Positions 5,701 to 38,610 of a DNA stretch of 45,218 nucleotides are shown in pieces (the first letter of the stretch is position 1; each line of letters begins with the position of its first letter). A model generated the notes under the pieces. The model was not told where the DNA came from. It made no database searches and saw only the letters and a list, made by a program, of their open reading frames with translations. The position numbers were made by a program, and so were the translations under genes. Source of the stretch: an uncultured Dehalococcoidaceae bacterium (GTDB taxonomy: Bacteria > Chloroflexota > Dehalococcoidia > Dehalococcoidales > RBG-16-60-22); the NCBI GenBank assembly GCA_964422155.1, contig CAYQZZ010000011.1, positions 1 to 45,218 on the forward strand. The letters run 5' to 3'.

Positions 5701-6537
5701 ATGAGTAGCCTTACAGGCAAGGTCGCTTTTATTACCGGCGCCGCCAGCAAGAGGGGCATGGGACATGCCATCGCCCTGCGACTGGCTAAAGAGGGGGCTG
5801 ATGTAGCCGTTACTGACAAGTTTGCCGCCCCCAAAAGCCTTTTCCCCGGAGATGAGGGATGGAGCGGATTAGACGCTATCGTCGCTGAAATCGAGGCCCT
5901 GGGCAGGAAATCCCTGGCAGCGACGATGGATATCAACGTCAGTCAGGAGATTGAAGCGGCCGTAGCCAAAGCAATAAAAAAACTCGGGAAGATAGACATA
6001 CTGGTGCACGCTGCTGCCATTCGAGGACCGGTGGGGGTCCCTGTCGTTGACCTTGCGGAGAAAGATATAAGAGCTATCATTGACGTTGACCTGGTCGGCT
6101 CCTTTCTGGTTACCAAAGCGGTCGCTAGGACTATGATAGCCAGGGGAGAAGGCGGTAAGATTGTTATCATCTGCTCAACCGCCGGACTAAAAGGTGTACC
6201 GGGCAGCGCCGCCTATGGCGCGGCCAAATGGGGTACCATCGGGCTGACGAAAAGCCTGGCCCTGGAGCTGGCGAAGTACAAAATAAATGTCAACGGCATT
6301 AACCCGGGTATGTTTGTTACAAACCTGAGAGACGATTCCTTTGCTAAAATGGCGGAGGCTGAGGGCATCACCTGGGAAGAAGCCAGAAAGAAGGACCAGG
6401 GGGCGTTGGCTAAAATGATACCATGGGGTCGGCTCGGCACGGCTGAAGAAATCGCTGACCTGGCCTATTTCCTGGTCTCTGACCAGTCCGGATACATGAC
6501 CGGAGAAGTAATCGTCCTCGGTGGCGGCGTAACTTAA
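5701..6537 (+). CDS. SDR family oxidoreductase
   Basis: 278 aa. ITGAASKRGMGHAIA glycine-rich motif and YGAAK catalytic motif. GGAGG RBS. Confidence 0.9.
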   Translation: MSSLTGKVAFITGAASKRGMGHAIALRLAKEGADVAVTDKFAAPKSLFPGDEGWSGLDAIVAEIEALGRKSLAATMDINVSQEIEAAVAKAIKKLGKIDILVHAAAIRGPVGVPVVDLAEKDIRAIIDVDLVGSFLVTKAVARTMIARGEGGKIVIICSTAGLKGVPGSAAYGAAKWGTIGLTKSLALELAKYKINVNGINPGMFVTNLRDDSFAKMAEAEGITWEEARKKDQGALAKMIPWGRLGTAEEIADLAYFLVSDQSGYMTGEVIVLGGGVT

Positions 6538-7345: not shown

Positions 7346-8725
7346 ATGACTGCGATAAATGATTTTGTGAAAAACTTTACCAGTACCAGGTATGAAGATT
7401 TACCCGGTGACGCCGTAGAAGCGGCTAAAAAGGAAGTCCTGGACAGCCTGGCGACAGCCCTGGGCGGTTCGTCAAAGGCCGGGGTCGGGGAGCTGGTGGA
7501 CATGGTCAAGGAGTGGGGAGGCAGTGAGCAAAGCACTATCATCGCCTACGGGATTAAGTGCCCGGCACCCAATGCGGCTCAGGTCAACGGGACGATGATA
7601 CATGCCCTGGACTATGACGATGGTCACCAGGTAGCCCTAGTTCATATCGGGTGTGTGGCCGTGTCAACCTCTTTTGCGGTTGCTGAACGGATGGGAAAGG
7701 TAAGCGGTAAAGAATTAATCGCCGCTATCGCCCTTGGCGGTGACTTCATGGCCAGGCTGGGACTGGCGAGCCGACCGGGCACCAGCGCTCTAGGATCCGG
7801 CTGGCACCCTACAACTTTATTCGGTTTCCTGGGCGCCGCCGCCATGGCCGGGAGGATAATGGGGCTTGACGAAGAAAAGATGATTAATGCGATAGGTCTC
7901 GCTTACCATCAATGCGGGGGAGCCGGTTCCGGCGTGGGCGATGGCGCACTGGCGAAAAGGATGGGGCCGGGACTGGCGGCGAAGGCTGGCATCACGGCTG
8001 CCCTGATGGCCGAAAGGGGGATTACCGGTGAGAGGAACTCTCTCGAAGGGAGAACCGGGCTCTTCAACACATATATGGGAGGAGATTACGATGTTAAAAT
8101 ACTAACCGCGGATTTGGGGAAAAGATTTGAGGGAGTAAACATAGGGGATAAGCCGTATCCCTGCTGCGGGCTCACCCACGCATGTATAGACGCAGCACTC
8201 GCTTTGATAGCCAGACATGATATTAAAGTTGACCAGATACGAGATATTACAGTGTATGGTGGACAGTCGGTATACGGTTTATGCCAGCCCCCGGAGGTAA
8301 AGCGTGCCCCGCGGACGATTATCGATGCGCAGTTCAGCGTACCCTGGGTGGTGGCTACGGCTCTGGTCAAGGGTAAGGTCACCGTGGACGACTTTACCGA
8401 TGAAGCTATTAAAAGGCAGGAGATTCTAAAAGTTGCCGGGAAAGTAACCGGCAGGCTTGAACCGGCGATGAGCCGGCATGGCGTCGGGCCGGGCGGGGTA
8501 ATAATTACGATGAAAGACGGTACGGAGTACATGGAGGAGGTGGAACACTGCCTGGGCAGCGTGGAAAGGCCGATGACCTTTGAAGACTGCGCTGAAAAAT
8601 TCCGGGAGTGCGCCGCCTGCTCTATAAAACCGCTGTCCGCCGACACGGTCGATAAGGTTATCGAAATGGTCGCGCGGCTCGAGAAATTAAATGACGCCAA
8701 CGAAATCATCAGACTGCTCTGTTAA
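7346..8725 (+). CDS. MmgE/PrpD family protein (2-methylcitrate dehydratase-like)
   Basis: 459 aa. N-terminal region typical of MmgE/PrpD (FVKNFTSTRYEDLPGDAVEAAKKEVLDSLATALGGS). Length fits the family. Confidence 0.85.
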   Translation: MTAINDFVKNFTSTRYEDLPGDAVEAAKKEVLDSLATALGGSSKAGVGELVDMVKEWGGSEQSTIIAYGIKCPAPNAAQVNGTMIHALDYDDGHQVALVHIGCVAVSTSFAVAERMGKVSGKELIAAIALGGDFMARLGLASRPGTSALGSGWHPTTLFGFLGAAAMAGRIMGLDEEKMINAIGLAYHQCGGAGSGVGDGALAKRMGPGLAAKAGITAALMAERGITGERNSLEGRTGLFNTYMGGDYDVKILTADLGKRFEGVNIGDKPYPCCGLTHACIDAALALIARHDIKVDQIRDITVYGGQSVYGLCQPPEVKRAPRTIIDAQFSVPWVVATALVKGKVTVDDFTDEAIKRQEILKVAGKVTGRLEPAMSRHGVGPGGVIITMKDGTEYMEEVEHCLGSVERPMTFEDCAEKFRECAACSIKPLSADTVDKVIEMVARLEKLNDANEIIRLLC

Positions 8726-8750: not shown

Positions 8751-9449
8751 ATGGTCACTAAAAAGGAAAGAAATATAGAGGTTAAAGAAATTCTATATTT
8801 CGAAAAACCGGCGGGCAGGTCAAACACCAACAAGATGTTAGAGTTTATCACCGGGAAGATAGAAACCCTGGGACTACATCAAGTGATGATAGCCTGGTCC
8901 AGCGGGTATACACTGAGGAAATTCCTTGAAGCGACTAAAAATCTAAAGCTCAAACTCGATATTACGACGGTGACCAATCCCAAGGGAGGGACCATCGGCG
9001 GAAGGAATGTGTCTATCGACGATGAAACCCGGGAGGAACTCGAGGAAAAAGGTATAAAAGTCTGCTATCTCAATGACGACATGAGACTCGGCGAACCCAT
9101 GTCTCCATCCCCCGGGCAGAAGCTCATGAGAGACATGCTGCTTCCCTGGCTGCCGGCACATATTGACCCTTTAAGTCTCGATGTTGGGTGGGACCTGTCC
9201 CTCTTGCTCATAATAAGCCAGGGATTCCGTGTCTGTGTGGGGTGTCTGGCGCTTGCCGTAAAACATGGCCTAATCCCCGAGGGTGAGAGGGTGCTGTGTC
9301 TTGCCGGGTCAGCTACGGCGTGCGTCATGCAGGCCAGCGCATCCCCCCGAACGTGCTATGTTAAAGAAATTCTCAGCTATGAACGGAACTCTGATTGGTC
9401 ACAGATGAACCAATCAAGTTTGAAAAGAATGGTAGCCATAACAAAATAG
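8751..9449 (+). CDS. Hypothetical protein, last gene of the AOR/PrpD operon
   Basis: 232 aa. GAGGAGG RBS. 25 nt downstream of the PrpD-like gene. No family recognised. Confidence 0.6.
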   Translation: MVTKKERNIEVKEILYFEKPAGRSNTNKMLEFITGKIETLGLHQVMIAWSSGYTLRKFLEATKNLKLKLDITTVTNPKGGTIGGRNVSIDDETREELEEKGIKVCYLNDDMRLGEPMSPSPGQKLMRDMLLPWLPAHIDPLSLDVGWDLSLLLIISQGFRVCVGCLALAVKHGLIPEGERVLCLAGSATACVMQASASPRTCYVKEILSYERNSDWSQMNQSSLKRMVAITK

Positions 9450-13832: not shown

Positions 13833-15137
13833 TTAATATGTCATAAAACTGGGTAGCCAGGTAGCAAGAGCTGGAAAAACCATAAGTAAGACAGCTAAAA
13901 CGAACATGCACGCTAAAAATGGGAATATGCCCTTATAGATAGTGGTCAGAGGTACCCCTTCGGCGACTCCATAAATGACAAAAACATTTATTCCTACTGG
14001 GGGCGCGATAACGCCCATTTCTACCAGTACGACCATGATAACACCAAACCATATAGGGTCCCATCCTACCGACAATATGAGTGGATAAAATATGGGAATT
14101 GTCAATACGATCAGGGCAAGCTCATCCATAAACATGCTGATAACGTAATATATGGCTATTACCGCAATCAGCACCAGGTATTTATTCATGTGCATGGCTT
14201 CTACCCAGTTAACCAGCATAGTAGGTATATTGGTAACTGTTAAAAAGTGCCCAAAAACAAAAGCCCCGGCTACTATTACCATGATAAAGCAATTTATTCT
14301 TATAGCATCCCTGACACCGTTTAAAAATCCCTGCCAGGTAAGCTGTCTCCTGACCAGACCGATAACGATGACGCCGGCAGTTCCCGCAGCGGCAGCGTAG
14401 GTGGGGCTGAACCATCCCAGGAATATTCCCAGTATCACCAGTAAAAACAAAACTAATGCTTCAATTATTCCGGTCATGCCCTGGATTTTTTGCTTCCACG
14501 TGGTTGGGCCGCCGGGAGGGGCTAATTTGGGGTTGCGGATAGTTATAATTAATACCGTAACGGCAAAAAGAGTTGCCAGTATGATACCAGGAATAACACC
14601 TGATATAAATAACTTGCCTATGGAATTTTCAGTCATGATGCCATAGACAAGGAATATGGTACTGGGCGGGATGAGAATTCCCAGACTACCGGCAGCAGCC
14701 ACGCATCCTGTTGCCAGCGCATCGTCATATTTGTATCTTTTCATTTCAGGTAAAGAGACCCTGCCCATGGCCGCGGCGGTAGCATTAGTCGAGCCGCAGA
14801 TAGCAGAAAACATAGCACAAGCGGCTATGGTGGATATCGCCAGTCCGCCTGGCAGTCTACCAAACATGGTATATCCCGCATCGTACAATCGCCGGCTGAT
14901 GCCGGTATAGAAGGCAAGCGTACCCATCAGGATAAACATGGTTATGGCAGTATACGAATACGAAGAAAAAACGTCGAAAAGGTCTCTGGTAACAATGCTT
15001 AACCCCGGCCCGAGGCCCCTCAAAGCTGAGAAGCCGATAATACCGACAAGAGCCATGGCAAAACCGATGGGCATGCGCAGAAGAAAGAGAATGACCATGA
15101 AGACAGTCAGGACAATAGCAAGAGTTACCGGATTCAT
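13833..15137 (-). CDS. dctM: TRAP transporter large permease subunit
   Basis: 434-aa polytopic membrane protein. 4-nt overlap with the upstream small-subunit gene. Confidence 0.9.
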   Translation of the reverse strand: MNPVTLAIVLTVFMVILFLLRMPIGFAMALVGIIGFSALRGLGPGLSIVTRDLFDVFSSYSYTAITMFILMGTLAFYTGISRRLYDAGYTMFGRLPGGLAISTIAACAMFSAICGSTNATAAAMGRVSLPEMKRYKYDDALATGCVAAAGSLGILIPPSTIFLVYGIMTENSIGKLFISGVIPGIILATLFAVTVLIITIRNPKLAPPGGPTTWKQKIQGMTGIIEALVLFLLVILGIFLGWFSPTYAAAAGTAGVIVIGLVRRQLTWQGFLNGVRDAIRINCFIMVIVAGAFVFGHFLTVTNIPTMLVNWVEAMHMNKYLVLIAVIAIYYVISMFMDELALIVLTIPIFYPLILSVGWDPIWFGVIMVVLVEMGVIAPPVGINVFVIYGVAEGVPLTTIYKGIFPFLACMFVLAVLLMVFPALATWLPSFMTY

Positions 15138-15619
15138 CTGGTCCGCATCCTGAAAATATTAATGGTCTGCAGCAAGAGAACCAGAATGACAACTATGGCA
15201 CAGATACCCTGGAACCAGATAAAAGGGTAAATGGGCATTTCCACGGTCATGGAAACTTCACCTGATCTGAGTATGTCTATTCCGTACAGGAAACTTCTCC
15301 AGGCGACAATGCTCCAGAGTATTATCCCCAATACGTTTACGAATAAACCGATGATTTTTCGCCAGAATCGTGATAGCCGTGCTTCCAGAACCTCAACCTC
15401 AATATGACCATGATTTACCTGGACCTCAGGAATAGCGAAGACAATAGCTATCACCGCGACTAAACCGATACTATCAAATGACCAATTTAAGGGATTTTTA
15501 AATACTTTGTTCATGATTATATCGGCCACGGAAATTAATAATACGTAAATCATGCCGATACCAGCAATGACATGGAACCATTTAGACAAGGGAGTCATAA
15601 ATTTATCAAATTTTCCCAT
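15134..15619 (-). CDS. dctQ: TRAP transporter small permease subunit
   Basis: 161 aa with 4 TM segments. Overlaps dctM by 4 nt. Confidence 0.8.
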   Translation of the reverse strand: MGKFDKFMTPLSKWFHVIAGIGMIYVLLISVADIIMNKVFKNPLNWSFDSIGLVAVIAIVFAIPEVQVNHGHIEVEVLEARLSRFWRKIIGLFVNVLGIILWSIVAWRSFLYGIDILRSGEVSMTVEMPIYPFIWFQGICAIVVILVLLLQTINIFRMRTR

Positions 15620-15745
15620 TACAAAACATTCTCGTCATTATATTTTAAGAATATATGGTACTACCCCTGTATCGTTTAAAATCAGGGATGCACCGGTCTT
15701 AATCAGGACCAATGCATCCCCAATCTTTGTTTTTGAGCCTGGTAT

Positions 15746-16846
15746 CTATTTAGGTGCGAATGGAACTATATTTTTGTCTGCCCAATCGAGACACTCTTTC
15801 TCTGATGGGGCTTTCTTTCCCAATGTTGATACCCGCTCTATGAGGTATTTTTCATATTCAGCTACAGGACCCTTTGATGCTCTATCTGTTATATAGGCGT
15901 CAAGTGCCGGTTTGGCAGCGGCGACAAATCTTGCCATCTCATCTGGGGATAGCTCGATAAGTTCCTTGCCCGGCATCGATTTGAAGAGGTCAATGGCCGC
16001 TTTATCATAGGCTGTCCAGGACATAGCGTGTTTGTCTACCCATTGCTCGCTGATTTTGGTAATCTTATCCTGGATGTCTTTGGGAAGGGAATCCCACTTG
16101 GCTTTGTTCATACAAACGTAGAAGCCGGCGGTACTGCCTATTCCATAGGTGCCGGTCACGTAGTTGACCACCTCTGCCTGTTTCCATCCCTTAAGCGGCT
16201 CACGCGGAGTAAAGCTACCATCAATGGTGCCTTTGGACATCAGTTCATAGGCATCACCCTGACCGGCCGCGTAACCCTTGGCGCCCAGGGCTTCGATAAT
16301 TTTCGCACCGATACCCGTAGAACGGATAACCATACCCTTCAGGTCTTCCAGCTTTCTAACGGGTTTTTTGGTGGTGTAAATAACCTGTGGCCCGTGGGCA
16401 TGGAAATACAATAAGTGATATTTATCCCATTCGGCCAGCTTGTATTTACTCAGGAAATCCCAGGCAGTTTTGGTAGCTGTCCAGCCATCGGGATAGTTAT
16501 GAGGCATATCAATCAATTCACTGAGAGGAAAACGGCCCAGGGTGTAGGCGGTGCAGGACATACCGATATCAGCAATACCGGTTTCGACAGCATCGGCGAT
16601 TTTATTAGAGGCCGCCAGTTGCCCGGCAGGGTAATAGGTAATTTCCACCCGCCCGTTGGTCTGTTTTTTAATTTCGTCGCACCATTGTTTGGCGAGAATT
16701 GAGTTCCAGTTGGTCGGGGGGAAGAAATCGGCGTAGGTTAATTTAATAACTTCAGTGGGTTGGGTGGTTGCTTGGCAGGCAGAAAGGACAGGCAATAATA
16801 CAACTACCAAGGTAAGAGTAATTAAAACTAATAAAAATCTTTTCAT
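15746..16846 (-). CDS. dctP: TRAP transporter substrate-binding protein (lipoprotein)
   Basis: 366 aa. Lipoprotein signal ...LLPVLSAC. DctP-like fold. AAGGAGG RBS. Confidence 0.9.
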   Translation of the reverse strand: MKRFLLVLITLTLVVVLLPVLSACQATTQPTEVIKLTYADFFPPTNWNSILAKQWCDEIKKQTNGRVEITYYPAGQLAASNKIADAVETGIADIGMSCTAYTLGRFPLSELIDMPHNYPDGWTATKTAWDFLSKYKLAEWDKYHLLYFHAHGPQVIYTTKKPVRKLEDLKGMVIRSTGIGAKIIEALGAKGYAAGQGDAYELMSKGTIDGSFTPREPLKGWKQAEVVNYVTGTYGIGSTAGFYVCMNKAKWDSLPKDIQDKITKISEQWVDKHAMSWTAYDKAAIDLFKSMPGKELIELSPDEMARFVAAAKPALDAYITDRASKGPVAEYEKYLIERVSTLGKKAPSEKECLDWADKNIVPFAPK

Positions 16847-17369: not shown

Positions 17370-18833
17370 TTAGGGTAGCATAAGGGCCCAGCAACGCTCA
17401 TATTGGCGGTGATAAAATTCCGGTAAAACATCCGTCTCATGTTCGTGAAAAACTCTGAATTGTTTATCAGTATTTAATAAATTCAATATATCGCGAAGTC
17501 TCCCAATCATTTGCTGGTTACTCAGAGTTTTAACTAAGTTGTATCCGGATGGGAATGGGGCAGGAGCGTTCTTTAGTCTTTTTAGGAGCATACTTCCGGA
17601 AGAAATGTAAGAAACCATATCAATGAGTTTCTCATAAAAGACTACCGGACTATAATTCTTTAGCGTATGTACCAGGTATGGCATGTAATAAAAAGTAAAC
17701 GGCATGGCTGTCAAGATACGGCCTTCGCTTAAATATCTTTCGTATAGCGGAGTGTTTCCAAAGGGGACCGGAATATTAAAATTCGGCATAACGAAAGGAA
17801 CTCGAGATGCGAATTCCTTGGTCAACTCTACAGGTTCATCCCCTGTATCCACATCCAGACCGAAGATAAAATTGGCTTGAATTCCGGTAACGTAAGGCCG
17901 AATGATATTAAAATGCTCTATGACTTTTTCCAGTTTTTGTCGAGGAGCTATGATAGAGCCAGCTCCAGGCTTGTTTGAATAACCTGTCCATGATTCGATG
18001 CCCGGAATTATATAGAACTTCCCCAGGTTTTTCAGCCGCTCCAATCTGGAACCCCGCAGGATGGAGAGTGAAGTTTCCATCATATAACTGCTACGCCTGC
18101 GATTGGGTATCTTTTCCAGTACATCGAAGACTTGCTCGAATTTCACGGCAAAGTTGGGATCATGTAAACCGATCATCACCCTGGGGAAATGTTGGAAGAT
18201 ATAGCGCATATCTGCTTCTAGCTGGTCCAAAGATAAAAGTACATAGGGATTATTCCAATCAATACAGAAATCACAAGAATTAGGACAGCCAATGCTGGTT
18301 AACAACGGAATTGAAGTAAAAGGAAAGGGTTTACCCCTCAGGAAAGTGGATGCGCGGATTTCCGGCATTCGTTCTTGTACACTGGGGATACTGCCAAGGG
18401 CGCGCCCACTGGTGAGAATTTCTCCCCGAGGGGCATCTCTTAAAATCTCAGTTATTAGAGTCTTATCACAATCACGCACAACGATATCAAAGAAACGCAG
18501 ACAATCCTCGGGAAATTGTTTAGCATGAGGACCGCCCATGACCGTAAGCGTTTTCTCCTTGCGATACAGTTTTGCCAGCGCGTATGCCAGTGCACTTGCC
18601 TGAGTATAAGTTGAGATGAACACAACATCCAGATCGTTTGGTAGCAGTTGCTTGGGATCCTTATTGCCAAAATAGGTGGCATAGAAAACTTCGTGGCCCA
18701 GATTACGGCACCAGACGCTAATTGCCTGAGGCATGATACTGGCATATTGCTTGGTAACCAGATAGTTATATGCTGTATGATCCCATCTTCTGGTGGATCC
18801 GGCTCTCAATAGCTCAAGGATTCCTATTCTCAT
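17370..18833 (-). CDS. B12-binding domain-containing radical SAM protein (class B radical SAM)
   Basis: 487 aa. N-terminal cobalamin-binding-like domain followed by CPNSCDFC (CxxxCxxC) radical SAM cluster motif. Confidence 0.8.
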   Translation of the reverse strand: MRIGILELLRAGSTRRWDHTAYNYLVTKQYASIMPQAISVWCRNLGHEVFYATYFGNKDPKQLLPNDLDVVFISTYTQASALAYALAKLYRKEKTLTVMGGPHAKQFPEDCLRFFDIVVRDCDKTLITEILRDAPRGEILTSGRALGSIPSVQERMPEIRASTFLRGKPFPFTSIPLLTSIGCPNSCDFCIDWNNPYVLLSLDQLEADMRYIFQHFPRVMIGLHDPNFAVKFEQVFDVLEKIPNRRRSSYMMETSLSILRGSRLERLKNLGKFYIIPGIESWTGYSNKPGAGSIIAPRQKLEKVIEHFNIIRPYVTGIQANFIFGLDVDTGDEPVELTKEFASRVPFVMPNFNIPVPFGNTPLYERYLSEGRILTAMPFTFYYMPYLVHTLKNYSPVVFYEKLIDMVSYISSGSMLLKRLKNAPAPFPSGYNLVKTLSNQQMIGRLRDILNLLNTDKQFRVFHEHETDVLPEFYHRQYERCWALMLP

Positions 18834-19059: not shown

Positions 19060-19752
19060 CTAGCTTTCTTTTACAGCTACAACAATTTCGCCAGGTAGGC
19101 CAAACAACTTTATTTTCTCCTCTTTTCTTATTTCGTATCCAGAATCCCTTAATGACTGCTCCAAATAGATAGGCCTGCAATCAACATATTTGGGCCACTT
19201 TCTATGTGCCCATTCATAAAGCCTCAGTAATAGAGATTCCCCGTTCTTTTTGGACATGCTGATAACCCCGATCCTACCCCTGGGCTTGAGGACTCTCTTC
19301 ACCTCTTCGAGCAGCCTTGGGATCTCAAGAGTATCGAAAAGCTCAAGGGTAAAGCTCATAAAGACCGCATCGAAAGTGTTGTCACCATACGGTAGACTCG
19401 TAGCATCTCCGCAATATAGCTTCACCCTATCCATCAGTTGGACCTTATCAAGCCTTCTCCTTGTGACATCCAGCATACCTGAGGAAATATCCACACCATA
19501 GACTTTGCCCGTCTTGCCAACGGACTCGGCCAATCGCTTTAAACAGTGCCCAGGCCCAAAACCGATTTCGAGCACGGTTGCGCCCTCTTCGACAGATAGC
19601 CGTTCAACAGCCATTTCGGCATATTTTCGCTCGAACGCTCCGGTAAGGTAATCGTAGACCCTGCTTATGCGGTCGTAGAAGCGTTTAGCTTCTTCTTTGC
19701 TTCTGCGAACAGGAAGTATATCTGGAGCTATTAAACCATTTTCCTCTTTCAT
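19060..19752 (-). CDS. Class I SAM-dependent methyltransferase (UbiE/COQ5-like)
   Basis: 230 aa. Motif I VLEIGFGPGHCLKRLAE. Motif post-I VYGVDIS. Confidence 0.85.
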   Translation of the reverse strand: MKEENGLIAPDILPVRRSKEEAKRFYDRISRVYDYLTGAFERKYAEMAVERLSVEEGATVLEIGFGPGHCLKRLAESVGKTGKVYGVDISSGMLDVTRRRLDKVQLMDRVKLYCGDATSLPYGDNTFDAVFMSFTLELFDTLEIPRLLEEVKRVLKPRGRIGVISMSKKNGESLLLRLYEWAHRKWPKYVDCRPIYLEQSLRDSGYEIRKEEKIKLFGLPGEIVVAVKES

Positions 19753-19950: not shown

Positions 19951-20922
19951 ATGAAAGATTTTGTTGGTAAAGTATGTTTTATAACCGGAGGCGCTTCTGG
20001 TGCCGGGTTCGGTCAGGCAAAGGTGTTTTCAGAGGCAGGCTGCAAGATTGCGATTGCAGATATTCGTCAGGACCATCTGGACGAGGCAAAGGCGTACTTC
20101 CGGGAGAAAAAGGTTAAAGTCCATGCGATAAGACTGGACATTACGGACCGCCAGGCATACGCGGCGGCGGCAGATGAGGTAGAAGAGGTGTTCGGTAGCC
20201 CTCCGCAGCTTTTATTCAATACGGCGGGTGTCAATGCCTTTGGTCCGGCTGAAGCCTCGACATTTGAAGATTATGATTGGGTAATGGGTGTTTGTCTTGG
20301 CGGCGTCATCAACGGTATGGTGACATTCGTGCCGCGTATGATAAAAGCCGGCAAGGGAGGCTATATCGCCACGACTTCCTCGATGGGAGGTTTTATGGGA
20401 ACATCCGGGTGTGCTCCATACTCGGCTGCCAAAGCCGCAGTTAATAATCTCATGGAGAGTTATTATCAGGCGCTCAAACCGTATGGTATAGGTGTATCTG
20501 TCCTGTGCCCGGGTGGTATCAAGTCAAATATTGCCGAGGCATCATTTACACGGCCAAAGCATCTGGCAAACACCGGGTATAATATTAATAAAAAGACAAT
20601 TGAATTTATGCGTTACCATTACTCTTTTGGAATAGACCCTGTGGAGCTGGCATACATACTTAAGAAGGGGATTGAAAACGAGCAACTCTTTATTATCCCG
20701 GTCCCGGACCCGGAGAGAATGTTGAGGGACAATTTTGAGCGGATTATCAATTATGCCACTCCTGAAGGCATGCAGAGACAGGAAGAGCTGATGAAGAAGC
20801 GCATGGAAGAAATGAGGAAACGCATGGGCAACAGTCCCATGATGGAGGGTGCAGTCGAAGCCGGATGGGGGAAAGCCAGGAAGGATATAACGTGGGTCAA
20901 AGAACACAGGGGCCCCTTTTAA
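19951..20922 (+). CDS. SDR family oxidoreductase with about 90-aa C-terminal extension (SDR-A, paired with selenoprotein A)
   Basis: 323 aa. ITGGASGAGFG motif and YSAAK catalytic motif. GGAGGA RBS. Paralog of 24568-25515. Confidence 0.9.
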   Translation: MKDFVGKVCFITGGASGAGFGQAKVFSEAGCKIAIADIRQDHLDEAKAYFREKKVKVHAIRLDITDRQAYAAAADEVEEVFGSPPQLLFNTAGVNAFGPAEASTFEDYDWVMGVCLGGVINGMVTFVPRMIKAGKGGYIATTSSMGGFMGTSGCAPYSAAKAAVNNLMESYYQALKPYGIGVSVLCPGGIKSNIAEASFTRPKHLANTGYNINKKTIEFMRYHYSFGIDPVELAYILKKGIENEQLFIIPVPDPERMLRDNFERIINYATPEGMQRQEELMKKRMEEMRKRMGNSPMMEGAVEAGWGKARKDITWVKEHRGPF

Positions 20923-20967: not shown

Positions 20968-22731
20968 ATGTCAAGTGAAGTACGTTTTTCAGTAATAAGC
21001 CCCGAAGCTGGAATCCTGAAGGGTACGGGTGGATTTGGACCTCCCGGTATGGGCGGACCTCCGGGTAGACCTCCCGGTGGACCTCCGCCGGGTATGGGCG
21101 GACCGGCACTGTCTTCACCATCTTTTGCCAAGCGGCTGGACACACTGGAGAACAAAACTGTGTATCTGGTGGATATCGGTTTCGGGGGCGGCTATAATTT
21201 CATGCTGCAATTGCAGAAGTGGTTTACCGAAAATATGCCGTCCGTCACCGCGATAGTGAAGCGGAAACCGGGGAATGTGTTCATGGACGATAAGAATGAC
21301 CTCTGGGAGGAAATTAAAGCAAAGGGCCATGCCGTTGTCCTCGGCGTAGCCGGCTGACCGGGCTGTATTTCAGCGGTCGCTGGAGGCAGCACGAAACTTG
21401 AACAGAACTATGGTATCCCGGTTGCTCCTGTCTCAAGTTACACGATGGAAAGCGTTGCCAAGGATAACCCGAGAGCCGCTTCTTTACCTTTCATATATAC
21501 GCCACTTCCTGTGATAGGTATGTCTCCTGAAGTCCTCGACAGGTATATCGCAGGCAACGACCCGGATACCGGTAAACCTGTCATCAATGAAATAATCGAC
21601 GTATTGACAAAACCGGTAAGCAAAACGAAGCTGGCGCCTGAATCTCCCAAAACCGTAAAAGTCGGCGCTCCCCAGGAATTCCTTGAACCGGATACTGAAG
21701 ACAACTTGCAGCGTCTATTTTATGAAAGAGGGTGGACGGACGGATTACCCATCATACTTCCTACCGAGGAGCGGGTGAAGAAAATGCTCGCAGGCACCGG
21801 CGCTTCTCCGGACGAAGTGGTTGGTGAAACATTCCAGATGGATACCGGAAAACTTGTCAAGTACACTGTTGCCAATATTGCGGTTATGGCGGTCATGGCC
21901 GGCGCTAGGCCGGAACATTTTCCCGTGATACTGGCTGTTGCGTCCACCAGACAATCGTCGCTTATGCCCTCTACAACAGCCTTTTCAGCCATGCTTTTGG
22001 TGAATGGGCCAATTCGCAATGAGATTGGTATGAACTCCGGTATTGGCGCATTCAGTCCGGTAAATATGGCAAATTCGGTAATCGGCAGGGCATGGACGTT
22101 GATGAGCATTTGCTGGGGATATGCTAAGCCTAAAAAGACGTTGTGGAGTTCACAGGGGAGTAATCTTATCTATAATAATATGTGCGTTGCGGAGAATGAG
22201 GAGAGGAGCGTCTGGACGCCTTTTCATGTTGATAAGGGTTTCAAGGCTGAAGAGAGTGTGGTCAGTATCTTCCGGGGATGGGCTGTTATCAACAGTACCG
22301 GAGCAGCCTCCAACCGGACACTGGGGGAGGAACTGAATCTCGAGCTAGCCGTGATCCCGCCGCTTGATTCCGCGGCTACTATAATAATGGACCCGCTTGT
22401 TGCCAGGAATCTGAAGGAGAACGAGGGCTTTAGTACCAAGCAGGATTACTGCCGCTGGTTATCTAAGAACATCAAAATGCCGGCAGGACAATACTGGAAA
22501 ACAGATTATATAGATATGCTGGTGGCCTCTGAAGCATACAAGGGAATAGAGCCTTACGCTTCCTGGAAAAAGCTCCCCGATGACGCGCTGATAGCTCCCT
22601 ATCATAAACCGGACAATATTAATATCATTGTCGTAGGCGGAGAGACAAGTCCCTTATGGAAAGCTTCGGATTATCGCTACACAGCCAGCGTATCTATTGA
22701 TAAGTGGCGAGCGAATAAGTTGGATAATTAA
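20968..22731 (+). CDS. Candidate selenoprotein A (about 587 aa; in-frame TGA at 21355-21357 read as Sec in G-V-A-G-U-P-G-C). N-terminal Pro/Gly-rich linker plus Rossmann-like domain, C-terminal about 450-aa domain of unknown function
   Basis: ORFs 20968-21357 and 21445-22731 are in the same frame, separated only by TGA. The 87 nt between them keeps protein-level conservation with the paralog (E..YG[IV]P.AP[VI]). The paralog has TGA at the aligned position. A GU-loop hairpin lies 5 nt downstream. GGAGGA RBS at 20968. Confidence 0.6.
21362..21390 (+). promoter_or_regulatory. Putative bacterial SECIS element for selenoprotein A
   Basis: Lower stem GCUG(21362-65)/CAGC(21387-90), upper stem CAGC(21371-74)/GCUG(21379-82), apical loop GGUC(21375-78). 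The loop G is 18 nt from the UGA. This is the same loop as the E. coli fdhF SECIS. Confidence 0.4.
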
Positions 22732-22842
22732 TGCGAGGACGGAACACGCGGGCTTCCGGATAAGCCGGCTGATTATGACTAATTTTTCACGGGCTGTTTG
22801 CCGTGCGTTTAATAATTCGGAATTTAACCAATAAGGAGAGAG

Positions 22843-24534
22843 ATGAAGAAGAACGGAAAAATAACAGTATTAGACCCGAGAGGCCAGCCTACCGGCATCT
22901 TCGGGCGGCGGCTTGACCCCGATTCGCCTCCCTTTGCTATTCACGACCCCGTAAACCAGCCGAGAGATACGGCTGAAGCCTTGGGCGCACTTAAAATGGC
23001 GCCGCGCCTCGATAGACTGGAAGGCAAGACCGTTTACCTGGTTGATACGGGATTTGCCGGCGGCGCGGATTTTATGGCGGAGGTCCAGGACTGGTTTACC
23101 CGTCACCGACCGGACGTGAAGACCGAGCTGCGCCACAAGAAGACCAGCATGTTCACCGACGAGCCGGAGCTCTGGGCTGAAATCAAGAAAAATGGCGACG
23201 CGGTCGTCTTCGGCGTGGGCGGCTGAGACGGCTGTTCGGCGAGTATCGCCGAGTTTGCCCGGACGATGGAGAGCGACTACGGGGTGCCGACAGCTCCTAT
23301 TGTCACCGCCCGTTTCGCGGACTATGTCCAGCGCGACGGCCGGAGCCACGGCATGAACCTCCGCTGGAGCTTTCCCCCCTACCCTGTAGGCTTCATCCCC
23401 CGCGAGACACTGCATGGCTATGTCGAGGGCAATGACCCTGTTTCCGGCGTACCCCTCATGGAGGAGGTTATTTCCGCCCTCACCCAGCCGCTGACGGACG
23501 CAGAGAAAACCTACAAGGCGGAAAAGAGACCGAAACGGCCGCGCCTGCTCGAACCGGATACCGAGATGAACCTCCACCGCCTCTTTTTGGAAAACGGCTG
23601 GACTGACGGTCTCCCTATCGTCCTGCCCACCGAAGAGCGCGTAGCGGAGATGCTTACCGGCACCGGCCGCGACCCCCAGGAATTCGTCGGCATGATGTCC
23701 GTGACAACCCATGAGGAGAGGCTCCAGTATGCGGTGGAGAGAGTCGCAGTCATCGCTGTCATGGCCGGGGCCAGGCCGGAGCACTTCCCGGTTATCCTGG
23801 CGTTAGGCGCCTCGGGGCGGCCTTCCATGCCCAGCTCGACGACTTCCTTCGCGAGCATGATGGTGGTAAACGGTCCCATCCGCGACCAGATAGGGATGAA
23901 CAGCGGCCTTGGCGCCTTAAGCCCGGTCAATTACGCCAACTCCGTTATAGGCAGGGCATGGACGCTGATGAGCATTAACTTCGGGGATGTCCGGCCTGGA
24001 GCCACATTCACTGCCAGCACCGGAACCACAATCAATTACAACAACATGTGCTACGCCGAGAACGAAGAGAACAGAGTCTGGCAGCCTTTCCACGTGCGTA
24101 AAGGCTATAAGGCAGGTGAAAGCACGGTGAGCTTTTTCCGAGGCTGGAGTGTCCTCGGCTTCAATACTGGCCCAGTCCAGCGGATGCTGGAAGTCATGAA
24201 AAGTATCGGCGGCCCCTTCGGCGGCTCGTTTACTTTCGTTATCGACCCCCTCGTGGCAAAGAGCCTGAAAAAGGAAGGCTATGATGACCCGTTCAAGCTG
24301 AGTGAGTGGCTCGTGAACCAGACGAATGCCCGTTTCAAGCGCCCGGAGATGGTGAACTTCGTCGTCGTCGGCGGTGAAATGAACCCGATGTGGGTTACGA
24401 CTGATTTCTCTTATTTCCAGACGGTCGTTATAGACCCGTGGATTCCTAAAGCCGGCATCAAGAAAGACGCCAGACCGCTCCGGATGCCGGTGGCATTAGC
24501 CTGTAAGGATGGTTCCTGCGGCATCTCGCATTAG
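22843..24534 (+). CDS. Candidate selenoprotein B (about 563 aa; in-frame TGA at 23224-23226 read as Sec in G-V-G-G-U-D-G-C), paralog of selenoprotein A but lacking the Pro/Gly linker
   Basis: ORFs 22843-23226 and 23266-24534 share a frame across a single TGA. The N-terminal domain aligns with A (LEGKTVYLVDTGFAGG / LENKTVYLVDIGFGGG; VVFGVGGU / VVLGVAGU). The C-terminal domain aligns along its length (GWTDGLPI[IV]LPTEERV, AVMAGARPEHFPVILA, NMC.AENEE..VW). AAGGAGAG RBS. Confidence 0.6.
23235..23253 (+). promoter_or_regulatory. Putative bacterial SECIS element for selenoprotein B
   Basis: Stem UUCGGCG(23235-41)/CGCCGAG(23247-53) with apical loop AGUAU. The loop starts 16 nt after the UGA and contains GU. 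Confidence 0.35.
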
Positions 24535-24567: not shown

Positions 24568-25515
24568 ATGAAGGACCTAAAAGGAAAAGTAGCTTTTATT
24601 ACCGGCGGCGCCAGCGGCATCGGGCTGGGGATTGCCAAGGCCTGCGCCAAATACGGCATGAAGGTGGTCATCGTTGATATGCGCCAGGACGCTCTGGATG
24701 AAGCGACGGCTTATTTCAAAAAGGCTAAACTGCCTGTCCATCCCATCAATCTGAACGTTACCGACCGCGTCGCTTATGTTAAAGCCGCCGATGAGGCGGA
24801 AAAAGTCTTCGGCAAGATACACGTGCTGGTCAATAACGCCGGCGTAGGCTCGGGCGGTCCGCTGGAGAGATTAACTTACAAAGATTGGGATTACAGCATG
24901 GGCGTCAACGTAGGCGGCGTTATCAACGGTGTGATGACGATTGTACCGCGCATCCTGAAGCACGGGGAGGGCGGCCACATCGTCGCCACTTCCTCGACCT
25001 GCGGCCTTATGGGCTCGAGCAACTTCTCTATCTACTGCACGACCAAGTACGCCGTGGCAGGCTTGATGGAGTGCCTCGCTTCCGAGCTTCAGAATAAAGG
25101 GATTGGGGTTTCGATACTGGTTCCCGGGCCGACGATGGGCAATCTTGGTTTATCCTCTTTTGTCAATCGCCCCGCTCATCTAAGGAACGAGGGAGAAACC
25201 TGGCCTCCTAAAATGCCTCCGCCCCCGAGGGACGGTCAGCCGCCCCGTCGGCCGCCGGGGGAAATGAAGGATGTATTTATGGACCCGGCAGAGACCGGCG
25301 AGCGCGTATTGCGGGCTATCAAGAATAACGACCTTTTCATCATCACCCATACGGAATGGAAGGCGGGTTTCAACGCCCGCAACGAAGCGATAATGCGCGC
25401 CTGCCCGGATGAGCCGCGGAATGAAAAGCGCTGGGAAGTAATTCAGCATTTCGGGGATATAATATATAATGATATTTATGATAAACAGAAACAGATAGGC
25501 CCGCCTGACTGGTAA
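24568..25515 (+). CDS. SDR family oxidoreductase with Pro-rich C-terminal extension (SDR-B, paired with selenoprotein B)
   Basis: ITGGASGIGLG motif and YCTTK catalytic motif. AGGAAA RBS before the ATG at 24568; the ORF-track start at 24535 is an upstream extension. Paralog of 19951-20922. Confidence 0.9.
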   Translation: MKDLKGKVAFITGGASGIGLGIAKACAKYGMKVVIVDMRQDALDEATAYFKKAKLPVHPINLNVTDRVAYVKAADEAEKVFGKIHVLVNNAGVGSGGPLERLTYKDWDYSMGVNVGGVINGVMTIVPRILKHGEGGHIVATSSTCGLMGSSNFSIYCTTKYAVAGLMECLASELQNKGIGVSILVPGPTMGNLGLSSFVNRPAHLRNEGETWPPKMPPPPRDGQPPRRPPGEMKDVFMDPAETGERVLRAIKNNDLFIITHTEWKAGFNARNEAIMRACPDEPRNEKRWEVIQHFGDIIYNDIYDKQKQIGPPDW

Positions 25516-27665: not shown

Positions 27666-28256
27666 TTAGTGGCCCTCATGGGGAACGTCATACCTCGGCG
27701 TGAGTGCAATAATCACCATGGTGATGGCTTTGTCCACCTTCTTGAAGTTGAGGGGGCAGTGCGGCATGCCTTTGGGGAAGAAGAGCACCGTGGGGGAGGT
27801 GATAACGTACCTTTCTTGGTCCTCCCCCTGGCCGATATAGCATTCAATCTCGGCATCGAAATCCGAGATGTCCTGTGGGTCAGAGCCGAAGAACATCATG
27901 AATTCCTCAAAGTCGTGTGAGTGCGGGAAGGGGACCATATCCACGGGCTTGGTGATGAAGCGATATATGAAGCGGCAATTGGCGTTTTCGTAGTTTTCCC
28001 CTTGCAGGTCTATCCACGGCCCATGTATCGGCCCCGGCTCTATTGGTAGCGGGGTCACATACTTAGCGTACTTTCCGGCTGTCATCACTCCATTAGTCTC
28101 CTCATTGGCCGAGGCCGTAGGTGCCTTCACCGGCACTGCCGCCGGCTCTGTTGTCGGCACGGGGGTCGTGGTACAGCCAGTAAAGATGCTTACTGATAGC
28201 GCCAGTACCAGAAGCCCTGCCAGCAAAATACTTACCAACTTCTTTTTACTTTTCAT
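27666..28256 (-). CDS. Cupin-like small protein family member 1 (lipoprotein version)
   Basis: 196 aa. Signal plus lipobox ...SIFTGC. Core shares PHSHDFEEF, DFDAEIE and P.G..H.P motifs with 33374-33799 and 36312-36872. Confidence 0.7.
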   Translation of the reverse strand: MKSKKKLVSILLAGLLVLALSVSIFTGCTTTPVPTTEPAAVPVKAPTASANEETNGVMTAGKYAKYVTPLPIEPGPIHGPWIDLQGENYENANCRFIYRFITKPVDMVPFPHSHDFEEFMMFFGSDPQDISDFDAEIECYIGQGEDQERYVITSPTVLFFPKGMPHCPLNFKKVDKAITMVIIALTPRYDVPHEGH

Positions 28257-32377: not shown

Positions 32378-33184
32378 CTATCGGGGTGGCGTTGGAGGCG
32401 GTGCCGGTGCCGGCGGTAAAAGCGGCAGTCCTCCGGCCACATACAGGGCTTGACCCGTAACGTATGCCGCGAGTTCCGAAGCCAGGAATAAGGCGGCTCC
32501 GGCCATATCCTCCGGAGTTCCCACTCTCTGCATGGGTACTTTTTTACCCAGCATATTAAAAAAGCCGTCCCGCTCTTTTTCTGTCATCTTCCCCACCATG
32601 GCGTCATAGAAGTTTGTCCTGATAGGCCCCGGCAATATACAGTTTACATTGATGCCCAGCGGCGCCAATGCGTTAGCCAGGTCGGTGGTGAAGCCGATAA
32701 CCCCGGCTTTAGCGGTATTATAATGAATCTCATGAGCCGGGGGCTGGACGGCGCCTATGGAAGAAAGATTGATGATTTTACCGTATTTCCTTTTCTTCAT
32801 GTGAGGGACGACATACTTGCAGAACAGGAAGTCGCTTTTCAGGTTTAAGGCGAAGGTTTTATCCCAGGCTTCTTCGGTCAGGTCTTCAACAGGAATATGC
32901 GCGGCTATCCCCCCGGCATTATTAACCAGGATGTCTATCTTGCCGTATTTTTTTACGACCTTCTCCACGGTATCGCCGACCTGCTGGCCGCTGGTGACAT
33001 CGCATTTGATGAAGATGGCGTTGCCGCCTTTTTTCTTAATTTCGGCGACGACTTCCTCTGCTTCCTTTATGGCGATATCGGCGATGGCGACGGCACAGCC
33101 TTCCTCCGCGAATTTAAGGGCCATGCCCCTTCCCATTCCTTTAGCGCCCCCGGTGATGATGGCTACTTTGTCCTTTAATAACAT
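32378..33184 (-). CDS. SDR family oxidoreductase with Pro/Ala-rich C-terminal tail
   Basis: 268 aa. ITGGAKGMGRGMA motif. AGGAGG RBS. Paralog of 2928-3710. Ends ...LLPPAPAPPPTPPR. Confidence 0.9.
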   Translation of the reverse strand: MLLKDKVAIITGGAKGMGRGMALKFAEEGCAVAIADIAIKEAEEVVAEIKKKGGNAIFIKCDVTSGQQVGDTVEKVVKKYGKIDILVNNAGGIAAHIPVEDLTEEAWDKTFALNLKSDFLFCKYVVPHMKKRKYGKIINLSSIGAVQPPAHEIHYNTAKAGVIGFTTDLANALAPLGINVNCILPGPIRTNFYDAMVGKMTEKERDGFFNMLGKKVPMQRVGTPEDMAGAALFLASELAAYVTGQALYVAGGLPLLPPAPAPPPTPPR

Positions 33185-33373: not shown

Positions 33374-33799
33374 CTAGTCCGTTGTATTGCCCACTCTTGA
33401 GTATTTTGCCGTCACGGCGACGTCCACGAACAGGACAGGTTTGTTTATCCTGGCGAAGTTTATCGGGCCGTGCATCAGGCCGGCCGGGATATATGCCGCC
33501 GTGGGCGACTTGATAATATGCTTTTCCTGCTCTTCGCCCAGCGTAATCTCGATTTCTGCATCGAAATCCCTGGCGTTATTCGGGTTTGCCGAGAAAAAGC
33601 TCAAATACTGGGGGAACTCATGCTTGTGGGGCTGGGATATCATCAGGTGGGGGCCTGTGATGTAAATGCTATCGATGGACAGGTGCCCCCCACCGAACTT
33701 GTCCAGGTGCCTGGTGCTGGTAACGTGGGAGCCCTCGTGTTTCGGGTCCTCTTTAACGACTTCCGTGGTAAGATATTTATCGTATTTCGTTTTGGCCAT
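33374..33799 (-). CDS. Cupin-like small protein family member 2
   Basis: 141 aa starting MAKTKYDKY. AAGGAG RBS. Motifs PHKHEFPQY, DFDAEIEITLGEEQEKHIIKSPT, PAGLMHGP. Confidence 0.7.
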   Translation of the reverse strand: MAKTKYDKYLTTEVVKEDPKHEGSHVTSTRHLDKFGGGHLSIDSIYITGPHLMISQPHKHEFPQYLSFFSANPNNARDFDAEIEITLGEEQEKHIIKSPTAAYIPAGLMHGPINFARINKPVLFVDVAVTAKYSRVGNTTD

Positions 33800-36311: not shown

Positions 36312-36872
36312 TTACCACTCGCGTTTCATCTTCTTCGCCAGCTTGAGAACCCTCTCCTCGCTTTCATAGCCCTGGTCGATAAACAGCAGATTGTCTCTCT
36401 CTTCATCGGACACCAGCTCCTGGTAAGATTTCTCCGTGTGTGTGGGCGATTGTTCGACGGTTACCATGATAAACGGCCTCGTTACTTTTCTAATTATCCA
36501 GGGTCCATGTATAAAATCGGCAGGTAAATAGACCAGGTCGGAGGTAGTGAGAATGTGCTTTTCCAGCTCCGGGCCCAGACAAAATTCAACCTCGCCGCCC
36601 AGGTCCAGCGGATTTTCCGGGTCTGTCCCGAGATGTATCACTACTTCGGGAAATTTATGTTTATGCGGTCCGTGCCCCATCTGCTCCCATGAGGAAACTC
36701 CGGGCAATCCCTGGGGAACGACAGGTACCCAGTGAATGTAATACTGGTGGCTGCCCAGATAGGCGTTATTATTGACTTTATCATCCGCAAAGGCTACAAT
36801 CGCACCGGTGCCGGCCGGGTTCCACGGCCTTGGTCCGGATAAAATATATTTGTCGTATTTTGTTTTCGCCAT
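36312..36872 (-). CDS. Cupin-like small protein family member 3 (with about 50-aa C-terminal extension)
   Basis: 186 aa starting MAKTKYDKY. AAGGAG RBS. Motifs PHKHKFPEV, GGEVEFCLGPELEKHILTTSD, PADFIHGP. Confidence 0.7.
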   Translation of the reverse strand: MAKTKYDKYILSGPRPWNPAGTGAIVAFADDKVNNNAYLGSHQYYIHWVPVVPQGLPGVSSWEQMGHGPHKHKFPEVVIHLGTDPENPLDLGGEVEFCLGPELEKHILTTSDLVYLPADFIHGPWIIRKVTRPFIMVTVEQSPTHTEKSYQELVSDEERDNLLFIDQGYESEERVLKLAKKMKREW

Positions 36873-36883
36873 TTTCTTGCTCC

Positions 36884-37297
36884 TTACTTTTTGGTTACCT
36901 CGACAATGCCGGCGTCAGCGTCAACCTTAACCCAATCACCGGTCTTGATTACCTCCAGCGGGTTTTTATCCAGTTCGGTCATGGCCGGGGCGTGTAAAAG
37001 TACAGCGGATAAAGCGGCCTTGGTGGTCATATCGTTGAAAATAAGAGCCTTGGGCGCGGTGCCTACCAATCGGGTAGCATGGAATGCCATCGATGTCCCC
37101 GAAGAACCCTTGGTCCCGGGAAATACGAGCACCTTGTCCTTAAAACTCTGCCCTCTTAACTCGTGGCGCCTTTCCGTAATGATGCCTTTAACCGCGTCAA
37201 TACCGCCCCATCCGGATATGGTATCTCTGGTGACGAGCGCTTCGCCCTCAACACAACCGCCAACGACTTTCCGGCCGTGAAGCACTATTTTCTTCAT
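36884..37297 (-). CDS. Aconitase X swivel-domain subunit (DUF126)
   Basis: Start MKKIVLHG. Its ATG overlaps the TGA stop of the upstream large subunit (ATGA). GGAAGGGAGAA RBS. DUF126-like length and composition. Confidence 0.75.
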   Translation of the reverse strand: MKKIVLHGRKVVGGCVEGEALVTRDTISGWGGIDAVKGIITERRHELRGQSFKDKVLVFPGTKGSSGTSMAFHATRLVGTAPKALIFNDMTTKAALSAVLLHAPAMTELDKNPLEVIKTGDWVKVDADAGIVEVTKK

Positions 37298-38610
37298 TTG
37301 AGTTCTCCCTTCCATTTCCCGGTGACAGCCGCCTCGATACAGTCTTTTTGCGAACCGAACCAGGTAGGGAAGCCGAGCATAGCGGGCATATAGTGCGCGT
37401 GTTTGGCCGAATCGGTAGCCGCCGTCTTGACACCCTTGGGTGAGATATGGCTGATGCAGGGGCAGGTATCGGTCATCAGGACAGCTCCGGCTTTTTTAAT
37501 AACGTCCGTCAGTCCTTCCTGGTCGGCGATAGTTTTGAGCGCATGCGGCGTAAAAATCCAGAGGTTAACGTTAGCGTGGACATGCTTGCCCTCCAGCAGC
37601 CGGGCCGCGTTCCATACCTCTTCCAGCGTATAGTGAGGGCAGCCCAGCATAATAAAGTCGACATTAGGGTCGGTGGCAGAAGTCAGGTTGTCATAAGCCT
37701 TCTTCCTCTCCGCCTTACCGAATTTCAGCTTCGCGACGGGTTTTTTCTTGCCGAAAGCCTGCTCCAGGGAATTCGCTTCCGGCGTGAAGCCGACGACGTG
37801 GTACAGCTCGACGCCGCCCGAAGAGGCGGCCGCGGCGCCGTGATGCTTAAGCCGGGCGATATTGGGGGCTTTACGTACACCATTAATCACGGGAACGTGC
37901 TCCTGTACTATTTCCCCGACGTAATAGCCCAGAAGACCCCAGTCCATAACGCTCTCCGGCTGGTATTCAACCTCCACCAGATGCGTGCCCAGACGGTTTT
38001 CATCGAGGTGATAGCCCCAGTAAGGCGTTTTGCCTACCAGCATGGAGGCCGTGGCGCTCTCCATCCCCTCGATATTGGTGCGTCCGCCCAGCACGGAATT
38101 GCAGTAGATGACGGCCGATGATTCTATCCAGGCGCAGTGCTCACCCATGACAGGGACATTGCCAAGAAGGTAAGGGGTACAACTATGCATAAGCTGCATA
38201 CCGATGCGGGCGCAGACTTTTTCCGAGAGGACGCCCATTTCATGGCGTTCGGGGGAGATGCCCTGGATTTGCCAGTTTTCCGGGTCCATTTCCCGTATCA
38301 GGCGGCAGGTGTAGACCTTAGCGCGGGGGATTTCAAAGGGCTCATCGCTATCAAGGTACATGCGTGAGAGGGCGGCGTCAACTTCATTTATTGTGGCCCC
38401 GGGTTTCGGCGCTGTGTAAGCGCCGGCGGAAATCGAAACACAGACGTTGTTAGTATCGACCAGCCTCTCCGCTCCCAGGGCTTCCCCGTACTTTACGAGC
38501 AGCTCCATGGCCTTCTGATAAGCAATGCCTTCACTGCCTTCCAGCAGAGCCTTTTCTTCGTCGGTCAGTTTCATATTACGTTTACCATCCTGTATAAAAA
38601 TCCCCCTCAT
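37294..38610 (-). CDS. Aconitase X catalytic subunit (DUF521)
   Basis: About 430 aa. DUF521-type N-terminus (LTDEEKALLEGSEGIAYQKAMELLVKYGEALGAERLVD). Start ambiguous between 38610 and 38574. Translationally coupled to the small subunit. Confidence 0.8.
   Translation of the reverse strand: MRGIFIQDGKRNMKLTDEEKALLEGSEGIAYQKAMELLVKYGEALGAERLVDTNNVCVSISAGAYTAPKPGATINEVDAALSRMYLDSDEPFEIPRAKVYTCRLIREMDPENWQIQGISPERHEMGVLSEKVCARIGMQLMHSCTPYLLGNVPVMGEHCAWIESSAVIYCNSVLGGRTNIEGMESATASMLVGKTPYWGYHLDENRLGTHLVEVEYQPESVMDWGLLGYYVGEIVQEHVPVINGVRKAPNIARLKHHGAAAASSGGVELYHVVGFTPEANSLEQAFGKKKPVAKLKFGKAERKKAYDNLTSATDPNVDFIMLGCPHYTLEEVWNAARLLEGKHVHANVNLWIFTPHALKTIADQEGLTDVIKKAGAVLMTDTCPCISHISPKGVKTAATDSAKHAHYMPAMLGFPTWFGSQKDCIEAAVTGKWKGELK

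Follow-up and report, generated by a model that had tools for sequence, protein, structure and literature searches.

The locus described here raises the question of how a single TGA codon is read. It lies in a stretch of 45,218 nucleotides from an uncultured Dehalococcoidaceae bacterium (contig CAYQZZ010000011.1 of assembly GCA_964422155.1), referred to below as the window, and a mechanical list of open reading frames (ORFs) cuts it into two pieces, 22843-23226 and 23266-24534. The two ORFs are in the identical frame, and our translation agreed with the original prediction, made from the DNA letters, that they are joined across one TGA at 23224-23226. The context of the site is AVVFGVGG-*-DGCSASIAEF; if the TGA stands for selenocysteine (Sec, U), the peptide across residue 128 is GVGG-U-DGCSASIAEFAR. 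We call this locus copy B and a paralog that lies upstream of it copy A. From the comparisons given below, we consider it very likely that 22843-24534 forms a single gene, that its product is a selenoprotein of 563 residues and that the internal TGA encodes Sec.

One reading frame across the TGA codon

When copies A and B were each joined across their TGA and aligned by BLASTP, they showed 44% identity over 539 amino acids (E 1e-150), and the alignment ran unbroken through the TGA with both stops in one column. The conservation on both sides of the codon that had been read from the sequence was thus borne out by the pairwise alignment proposed as its check. The original prediction had also put both stops into the motif G-V-G-G-[TGA]-D-G-C; the shared column held, but the motif is exact in copy B only, copy A reading G-V-A-G-[TGA]-P-G-C (context AVVLGVAG-*-PGCISAV). 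Copy A has a Pro/Gly-rich N-terminal stretch (GPPGMGGPPGRPPGGPPPGMGGP), which is absent from the translation of copy B, as had been noticed before.

Divergence from the window sequence was measured in 69 B-type orthologs over 25 codons on either side of the TGA. At codon positions 1, 2 and 3 it was 0.138, 0.094 and 0.490 upstream and 0.134, 0.069 and 0.421 downstream, implying that the two sides are in the same frame and under the same purifying selection. The selection check suggested for the read-through segment therefore gave coding constraint that continues past the TGA.

The locus could instead hold two genes, one for a 127-residue protein of the UGSC family (Pfam PF24696, see below) that ends at the TGA, the other for a 422-residue protein that starts at ATG 23266. 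All public gene calls split the locus in this way, as two hypothetical proteins, and an ATG 14 codons after the TGA is present in about half of the B-type copies. However, protein-level conservation extends through the 13 codons between the TGA and this ATG, where substitutions follow a coding-type pattern. ATG 23266, the start used by the gene callers, is the first in-frame ATG in just 41 of 83 B-type copies; in 21 of the 83 the first ATG comes 43 codons past the TGA, within conserved sequence, and in copy A it comes 30 codons downstream. The region between TGA and ATG holds a hairpin and not a ribosome-binding site. Termination at the TGA would moreover split both the UxxC motif and the UGSC domain, the "C-terminal" fragments still match PF24696, and a cysteine (Cys) homolog described below is one continuous ORF of 599 amino acids. 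We regard two separate genes as very improbable. Among the best 120 database matches to the first 217 residues, 119 are entries of 125-135 amino acids, nearly all of them 127-128, and one spans the site; 127-128 amino acids is the length expected if the gene call ends at the TGA.

Conservation of the TGA and its cysteine counterparts

A pattern scan with one genome per species gave 79 loci, from Dehalococcoidales, Acidobacteriota (including Acidiferrales), Bacillota, Desulfobacterota (Desulfobacteraceae, Desulfatiglans) and Leptospirales. A tblastn search with the region around the site against 80 related loci and the window gave 112 domain copies that cover the site. Across the five phyla sampled, the aligned codon is TGA in 111 of these and TGC in the remaining one (locus L044), so that conservation of the TGA is far above chance. 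The protein encoded at L044, P0076, is an uninterrupted ORF of 599 residues that reads GVAG-C-DGC and is 62% identical to copy B from end to end. Distant full-length relatives have CDGC, CSTC, CPGC or the classical CGSC at the Sec column, or are without cysteine there. The comparison with Cys homologs that the original prediction had proposed thus yielded TGC at L044 and a CxxC motif at this column in many distant full-length relatives.

It had been argued that TGA at one motif position in two divergent paralogs is hard to explain as a nonsense mutation, and the larger sample agrees. Nothing specific speaks for a nonsense mutation (a pseudogene) or for a sequencing or assembly error, beyond the window being a metagenome-assembled contig. 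The 111 copies with TGA are independent of one another, stemming from different samples, assemblies and phyla, and purifying selection acts on either flank of the codon. Its presence in 111 of the 112 copies effectively refutes mutation or error as the source of the TGA, and we take the probability that remains for them to be negligible.

A SECIS-like hairpin downstream of the TGA

Both copies fold, directly 3' of the UGA, into a hairpin that resembles a bacterial selenocysteine insertion sequence (SECIS). In copy B the apical loop begins 16 nt after the UGA, and an optional lower stem lengthens the hairpin to 23230-23259. Across 77 distinct B-type sequences, 93.8% of the cells of the 8-bp stem pair in the standard way, and sliding the 3' partners lowers this to 52% or less. 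Compensatory changes occur in four pairs (G-C to A-U six times, plus one C-G and one U-A), G20 and U21 of the loop are invariant, and in 500 column shuffles the observed values were not reached once. The A-type set of 13 sequences has two-sided changes in four pairs and 17 cells; its covariation score is 0.37 against 0.21 in shuffles, of which none of 500 reaches 0.37. Equivalent hairpins with the loop CGUGA were seen by folding inspection in copies of the U-HGC and U-NGC/NAC classes, formal counts being made for the A and B types only; in each paralog class inspected the distance from the UGA is fixed. Third-position divergence in the nine codons of the B-type hairpin is 0.156, versus 0.49-0.57 in the flanks, implying that synonymous sites are constrained as an RNA element would constrain them. 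In the Cys homolog the loop of the hairpin is altered to CAGCUUA. The hairpin matched no Rfam family at the gathering threshold.

With the bacterial SECIS of the E. coli fdhF type, these hairpins share the location directly 3' of the UGA inside the coding region and an apical loop that starts 16-17 nt from the UGA, its first base being G. They differ in that the apical loop of copy B is only 3 nt long (GUA). Position, size and G-first loop presumably fit the bacterial SECIS consensus (bSECISearch), and we take the copy A loop, GGUC, to be the same as that of E. coli fdhF.

These data also bear on whether the UGA could be decoded as a standard amino acid, either by genome-wide reassignment to Trp or Gly or by near-cognate read-through. 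The inserted residue is not identifiable from the sequence itself, and the window holds no Sec machinery. However, TGA terminates 6 of the 35 main ORFs of the window, including genes with Pfam matches that reach the C-terminus (DctQ, AcnX), implying that the code is not reassigned genome-wide. The homologs have Cys in a CxxC motif at the column, not Trp or Gly, the SECIS-type hairpin is specific to the site, and the family of the domain is already documented as containing Sec. Decoding as a standard amino acid thus seems to us highly unlikely. In the selenoprotein reading, the locus has several features expected of a bacterial selenoprotein gene: an in-frame UGA in a frame conserved on both sides, Cys homologs aligned to the UGA, and 3' of it a suitably spaced SECIS-like hairpin whose apical loop contains G. 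Alignment, downstream constraint, Cys homologs and the covarying hairpin all agree with the original prediction that the TGA encodes Sec.

Relation to the UGSC family and predicted structure

The N-terminal domain scores 72.1 bits in copy B and 35.1 bits in copy A on PF24696, where the gathering threshold is 25, and both copies thus belong to the UGSC family at the level of Pfam. This match had escaped the original prediction. The UGSC-containing protein of Zhang and Gladyshev has already been described as a family of selenoproteins that carry a UxxC motif, for which a likely thioredoxin-like fold was suggested in 2008, and it is among the most abundant families in the Global Ocean Sampling (GOS) metagenome (PMC2398784); its biological function has been described as unknown (PMC1976440; PMC13188914). 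The present proteins share with it, besides the PF24696 match, Sec as the first residue of UxxC and the existence of Cys homologs, and their distant two-domain relatives have a literal GD-CGSC, with PF24696 scores as high as 180 bits. They differ in the motif, which is U-D-G-C in copy B and U-P-G-C in copy A and not U-G-S-C, in the adjacent cognate short-chain dehydrogenase/reductase (SDR), and in the fusion to a C-terminal module of ~330 amino acids, the typical member being a standalone protein of ~150 amino acids. The literal U-G-S-C or C-G-S-C of a small single-domain protein was not found, the two copies being two-domain proteins of 563 and 587 amino acids. On the NCBIfam model NF041046, "UGSC family (seleno)protein", they score 47.9 (copy B) and 29.5 bits (copy A) against a cut-off of 125; by these scores they are related to that equivalog and are not members of it. 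Judged from these comparisons, the locus is a fused, motif-variant branch (U-D/P-G-C) of the known UGSC family and not a new kind of selenoprotein. The branch is large, widespread and so far unstudied; the family has >6,500 database matches and ~4,000 clusters at 50% identity.

A fusion of UGSC with a domain called Unknown_1 is reported for the GOS metagenome (PMC2398784, Figure S1A). It resembles the present architecture in joining a UGSC-type domain to a conserved domain of unknown function in few sequenced organisms. It differs in habitat, the GOS samples being oxic surface water and the present organisms anaerobes such as Dehalococcoidales and Desulfobacterota. Unknown_1 may be our module; in the portion of the GOS sequence dataset searched, no read carried the module motifs. 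GrdB and PrdB (PF07355) likewise have a UxxC motif with Sec (PMC2398784) and are large proteins of anaerobes with partner subunits. This is a resemblance only: PF07355 gave no match at E <= 0.01, and no grd or prd genes lie nearby.

A structure was predicted for P0076, the full-length Cys homolog, from an alignment of 66 sequences; the model is confident, with a predicted local distance difference test (pLDDT) score of 90.5 and a predicted template modelling (pTM) score of 0.89. In the model, Cys161, which corresponds to Sec128, directly precedes helix 162-179, and Cys164 lies in the first turn of this helix. By this model, Sec128-x-x-Cys131 would cap the N-terminal end of a helix, as CxxC redox centres usually do. 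The predicted structure suggests a flavodoxin-like UGSC domain; a thioredoxin fold around UxxC was considered and rejected, the predicted alternation of strands and helices not fitting it. P0076 also has a hydrophobic N-terminal extension without counterpart in the window protein, possibly owing to a mis-called start.

Among the conserved positions of the C-terminal module are the motifs GWTDGLPxxxPTEERV, AVMAGxxPE, VNGP, NxxIGRA, AENEE-x-x-W and VVGG; in P0076 numbering, conserved residues are D288, T296, E332, N376, R404, E439-E441 and W446. Its model is confidently predicted, and no relative was found for it in the PDB. Copy B contains five Cys or Sec residues in all (U128, C131, C403, C554, C559), the last two of which form a C-K-D-G-S-C tail that is missing from copy A of the window and from all six U-HGC copies. 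This tail is a possible second redox pair, and the low pLDDT there indicates that it is probably flexible.

Distant paralogs of the module (31-39% identity) adjoin the main genes at five related loci (L004:3429-4430, L011:3277-4437, L022:3829-4668, L025:3830-4666 and L027:3615-4559). They were not flagged by tblastn for the UGSC domain and may be forms without the Sec domain. Longer relatives have the module in other architectures. One of them, P0216 (1,226 amino acids), combines the UGSC domain and the module with repeats like the copper amine oxidase N-terminal domain. Others are P0178, P0193, P0205, P0209 and P0265 (709-741 amino acids); the ~710-residue proteins are without any Pfam match.

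Gene neighbourhood

Features of the locus and its neighbours are collected in Table 1. In the window, the order s1 - copy A - copy B - s2 is found, where s1 and s2 are SDR genes; all four lie on the + strand, separated by 45, 111 and 33 nt. Two modules recur in Dehalococcoidales: in one, found at most loci, a B-type gene has an s2-type SDR directly behind it; in the other, an A-type gene comes after an s1-type SDR. SDR genes are neighbours at 44-45 of the 80 loci; they are the only widely recurring neighbour, and their pairing is paralog-specific. Minor and mixed neighbours are a family-5 solute-binding protein, CoA-transferase III, dihydroxy-acid dehydratase and URO-D. In a contig from a Dehalococcoidia metagenome-assembled genome (MAG), the same four genes are ordered B-s2-s1-A (L071:5001-10451), with copy A 99% and the SDRs 97-98% identical to those of the window and copy B just 87%, which suggests that the modules of selenoprotein and SDR are shuffled or exchanged independently.

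Acidiferrales loci (L048, L049, L052, L056, L064, L065 and L068) carry up to 3-4 Sec-containing paralogs within ~12 kb, with the motifs U-EAC, U-HGC, U-PGC and U-NGC/NAC, each with a hairpin of its own. At L064:10681, a copy with the classical U-G-S-C is followed by a homolog of the C-terminal module. The gene for the Cys homolog P0076 lies in a cluster (L084:1-19800) that encodes three HdrA-like flavoproteins and as many MvhD/FlpD proteins, together with an HdrD-like CCG protein, a DUF1573 protein and a molybdopterin oxidoreductase; this context hints at thiol/disulfide electron transfer.

Table 1 Features of the copy B locus and its neighbours (window coordinates)
Feature	Coordinates	Strand	Basis
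Shine-Dalgarno-like AAGGAGAGAG	22833..22842	+	immediately 5' of the copy B ATG; read from sequence
Complete copy B gene, 563 codons including probable Sec128, plus TAG stop	22843..24534	+	single frame with one internal TGA
UGSC domain, aa 34-192, alternating strand/helix alpha/beta	22942..23418	+	Pfam PF24696 match; predicted structure
TGA probably read as selenocysteine, Sec128 (codon 128)	23224..23226	+	TGA in 111 of 112 aligned copies, TGC in 1
Putative U-D-G-C redox motif (Sec128, Cys131)	23224..23235	+	translation; alignment of copies
Copy B SECIS-like hairpin, 8-bp stem UUCGGCGA/UCGCCGAG, apical loop GUA at 23243-23245	23235..23253	+	fold; comparative pairing
C-terminal module, aa 236-563	23548..24531	+	motifs GWTDGLPxxxPTEERV, AVMAGARPE, VNGP, NSVIGRA, AENEE, VVGG
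C-K-D-G-S-C tail (Cys554, Cys559)	24502..24519	+	present in 71 of 74 U-DGC-type copies
Paralog copy A, 587 codons, probable Sec130 at 21355-21357, motif U-P-G-C	20968..22731	+	translation with one internal TGA
Copy A SECIS-like hairpin, upper stem of 6-7 bp, loop GGUC at 21375-21378	21368..21385	+	fold; loop begins 17 nt after UGA
Partner SDR s1, 323 aa	19951..20922	+	Pfam adh_short; 45 nt upstream of copy A
Partner SDR s2, 315 aa	24568..25515	+	Pfam adh_short; 33 nt downstream of copy B

The contig holds five SDR-family oxidoreductases in all (2928-3710, 5701-6537, 19951-20922, 24568-25515 and 32378-33184). It also encodes an aldehyde:ferredoxin oxidoreductase (3797-5632), a PrpD/MmgE protein (7346-8725), an aconitase X pair (36884-38610), a TRAP transporter (13833-16846) and a B12-binding radical SAM enzyme (17370-18833), and this gene set has a flavour of anaerobic organic-acid catabolism. 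A UbiE-like methyltransferase gene (19060-19752, - strand) is divergent from the selenoprotein block; its matches to methyltransferase-domain selenoprotein families in NCBIfam are weak and far below threshold, most likely reflecting shared fold similarity. Four ORFs of 141-232 amino acids (8751-9449, 27666-28256, 33374-33799 and 36312-36872) have no Pfam match, and 27666-28256 has homologs at ~35% identity in six related loci.

Discussion

Several observations weigh against reading the locus as a selenoprotein gene that serves a redox enzyme. None of selA, selB, selD, tRNA-Sec or any other tRNA gene was found in the 45-kb window, and a tRNA scan of 60 related loci gave no tRNA-Sec. The single-sequence fold energies of the hairpins are no better than those of shuffled sequences (z 0.22 for copy B and -1.32 for copy A), which is why comparative evidence was used for the hairpin, and the conserved peptide CSASIAE could explain part of its conservation. 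Many distant family members have neither Cys nor Sec at the site, implying that the C-terminal module does not always need a redox centre. The Hdr/Mvh-like context comes from one homolog, on two contigs of matching local gene order. Finally, no substrate, cofactor site or catalytic residue was assignable in this analysis. As for the organisms, Dehalococcoidia MAGs are among the most selenoprotein-rich bacteria, with 46-49 selenoproteins listed (PMC13326102).

If the locus does encode one selenoprotein, its synthesis and action may be pictured as follows. Bacteria decode Sec through SelB, which in complex with Sec-tRNA(Sec) recognises the SECIS hairpin, and selenocysteine is inserted. By analogy, SelB with Sec-tRNA(Sec) would bind the hairpin and insert Sec at codon 128 instead of letting translation terminate. 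As the model and the chemistry of CxxC motifs suggest, Sec128 and Cys131 would form a redox-active selenenylsulfide centre. More speculatively, Sec128 might attack a substrate that the C-terminal module holds, as the nucleophile of a selenol/thiol redox reaction; the resulting selenenylsulfide with Cys131 might be resolved by the flexible CX4C tail or by an external reductant, and the adjacent SDR might act on that substrate in a step that depends on NAD(P)(H). This specific scheme, with Sec128 as nucleophile, the tail as relay and a step by the SDR, is put forward with low confidence.

The UxxC domain might also act as a sulfur or selenium carrier, or as a redox sensor that regulates the C-terminal module, and not as a catalytic nucleophile. 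Such a role would be compatible with the many distant members that are without redox residues. However, encoding Sec is costly and proteins generally retain it where it takes part in redox catalysis; the helix-cap geometry of UxxC in the model is also that of a redox-active centre. We think a carrier or sensor role on the whole unlikely. Returning to the catalytic reading, its widest form is that UxxC selenoprotein, module and SDR make up an unrecognised selenium-dependent enzyme system of anaerobes. This system, possibly a selenol-nucleophile reductase acting on a small molecule with a logic like that of the glycine and proline reductases, would have been duplicated into substrate-specific paralogs and hidden by the splitting of its genes at the TGA. 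So broad a proposal is doubtful, and we offer it as a conjecture.

In every public record inspected, the gene is called as two hypothetical proteins, and Sec is nearly universal in the clade. A corrected annotation would add 1-4 selenoproteins per genome in many Dehalococcoidales, Acidobacteriota, Desulfobacterota and Bacillota. The confident model of the C-terminal module and the lack of a relative in the PDB make it a good target for structural and functional work. For the UGSC family, the fixed fusion partner with its conserved polar residues, the cognate SDR and, in one lineage, the Hdr/Mvh-type link would provide the first functional leads.
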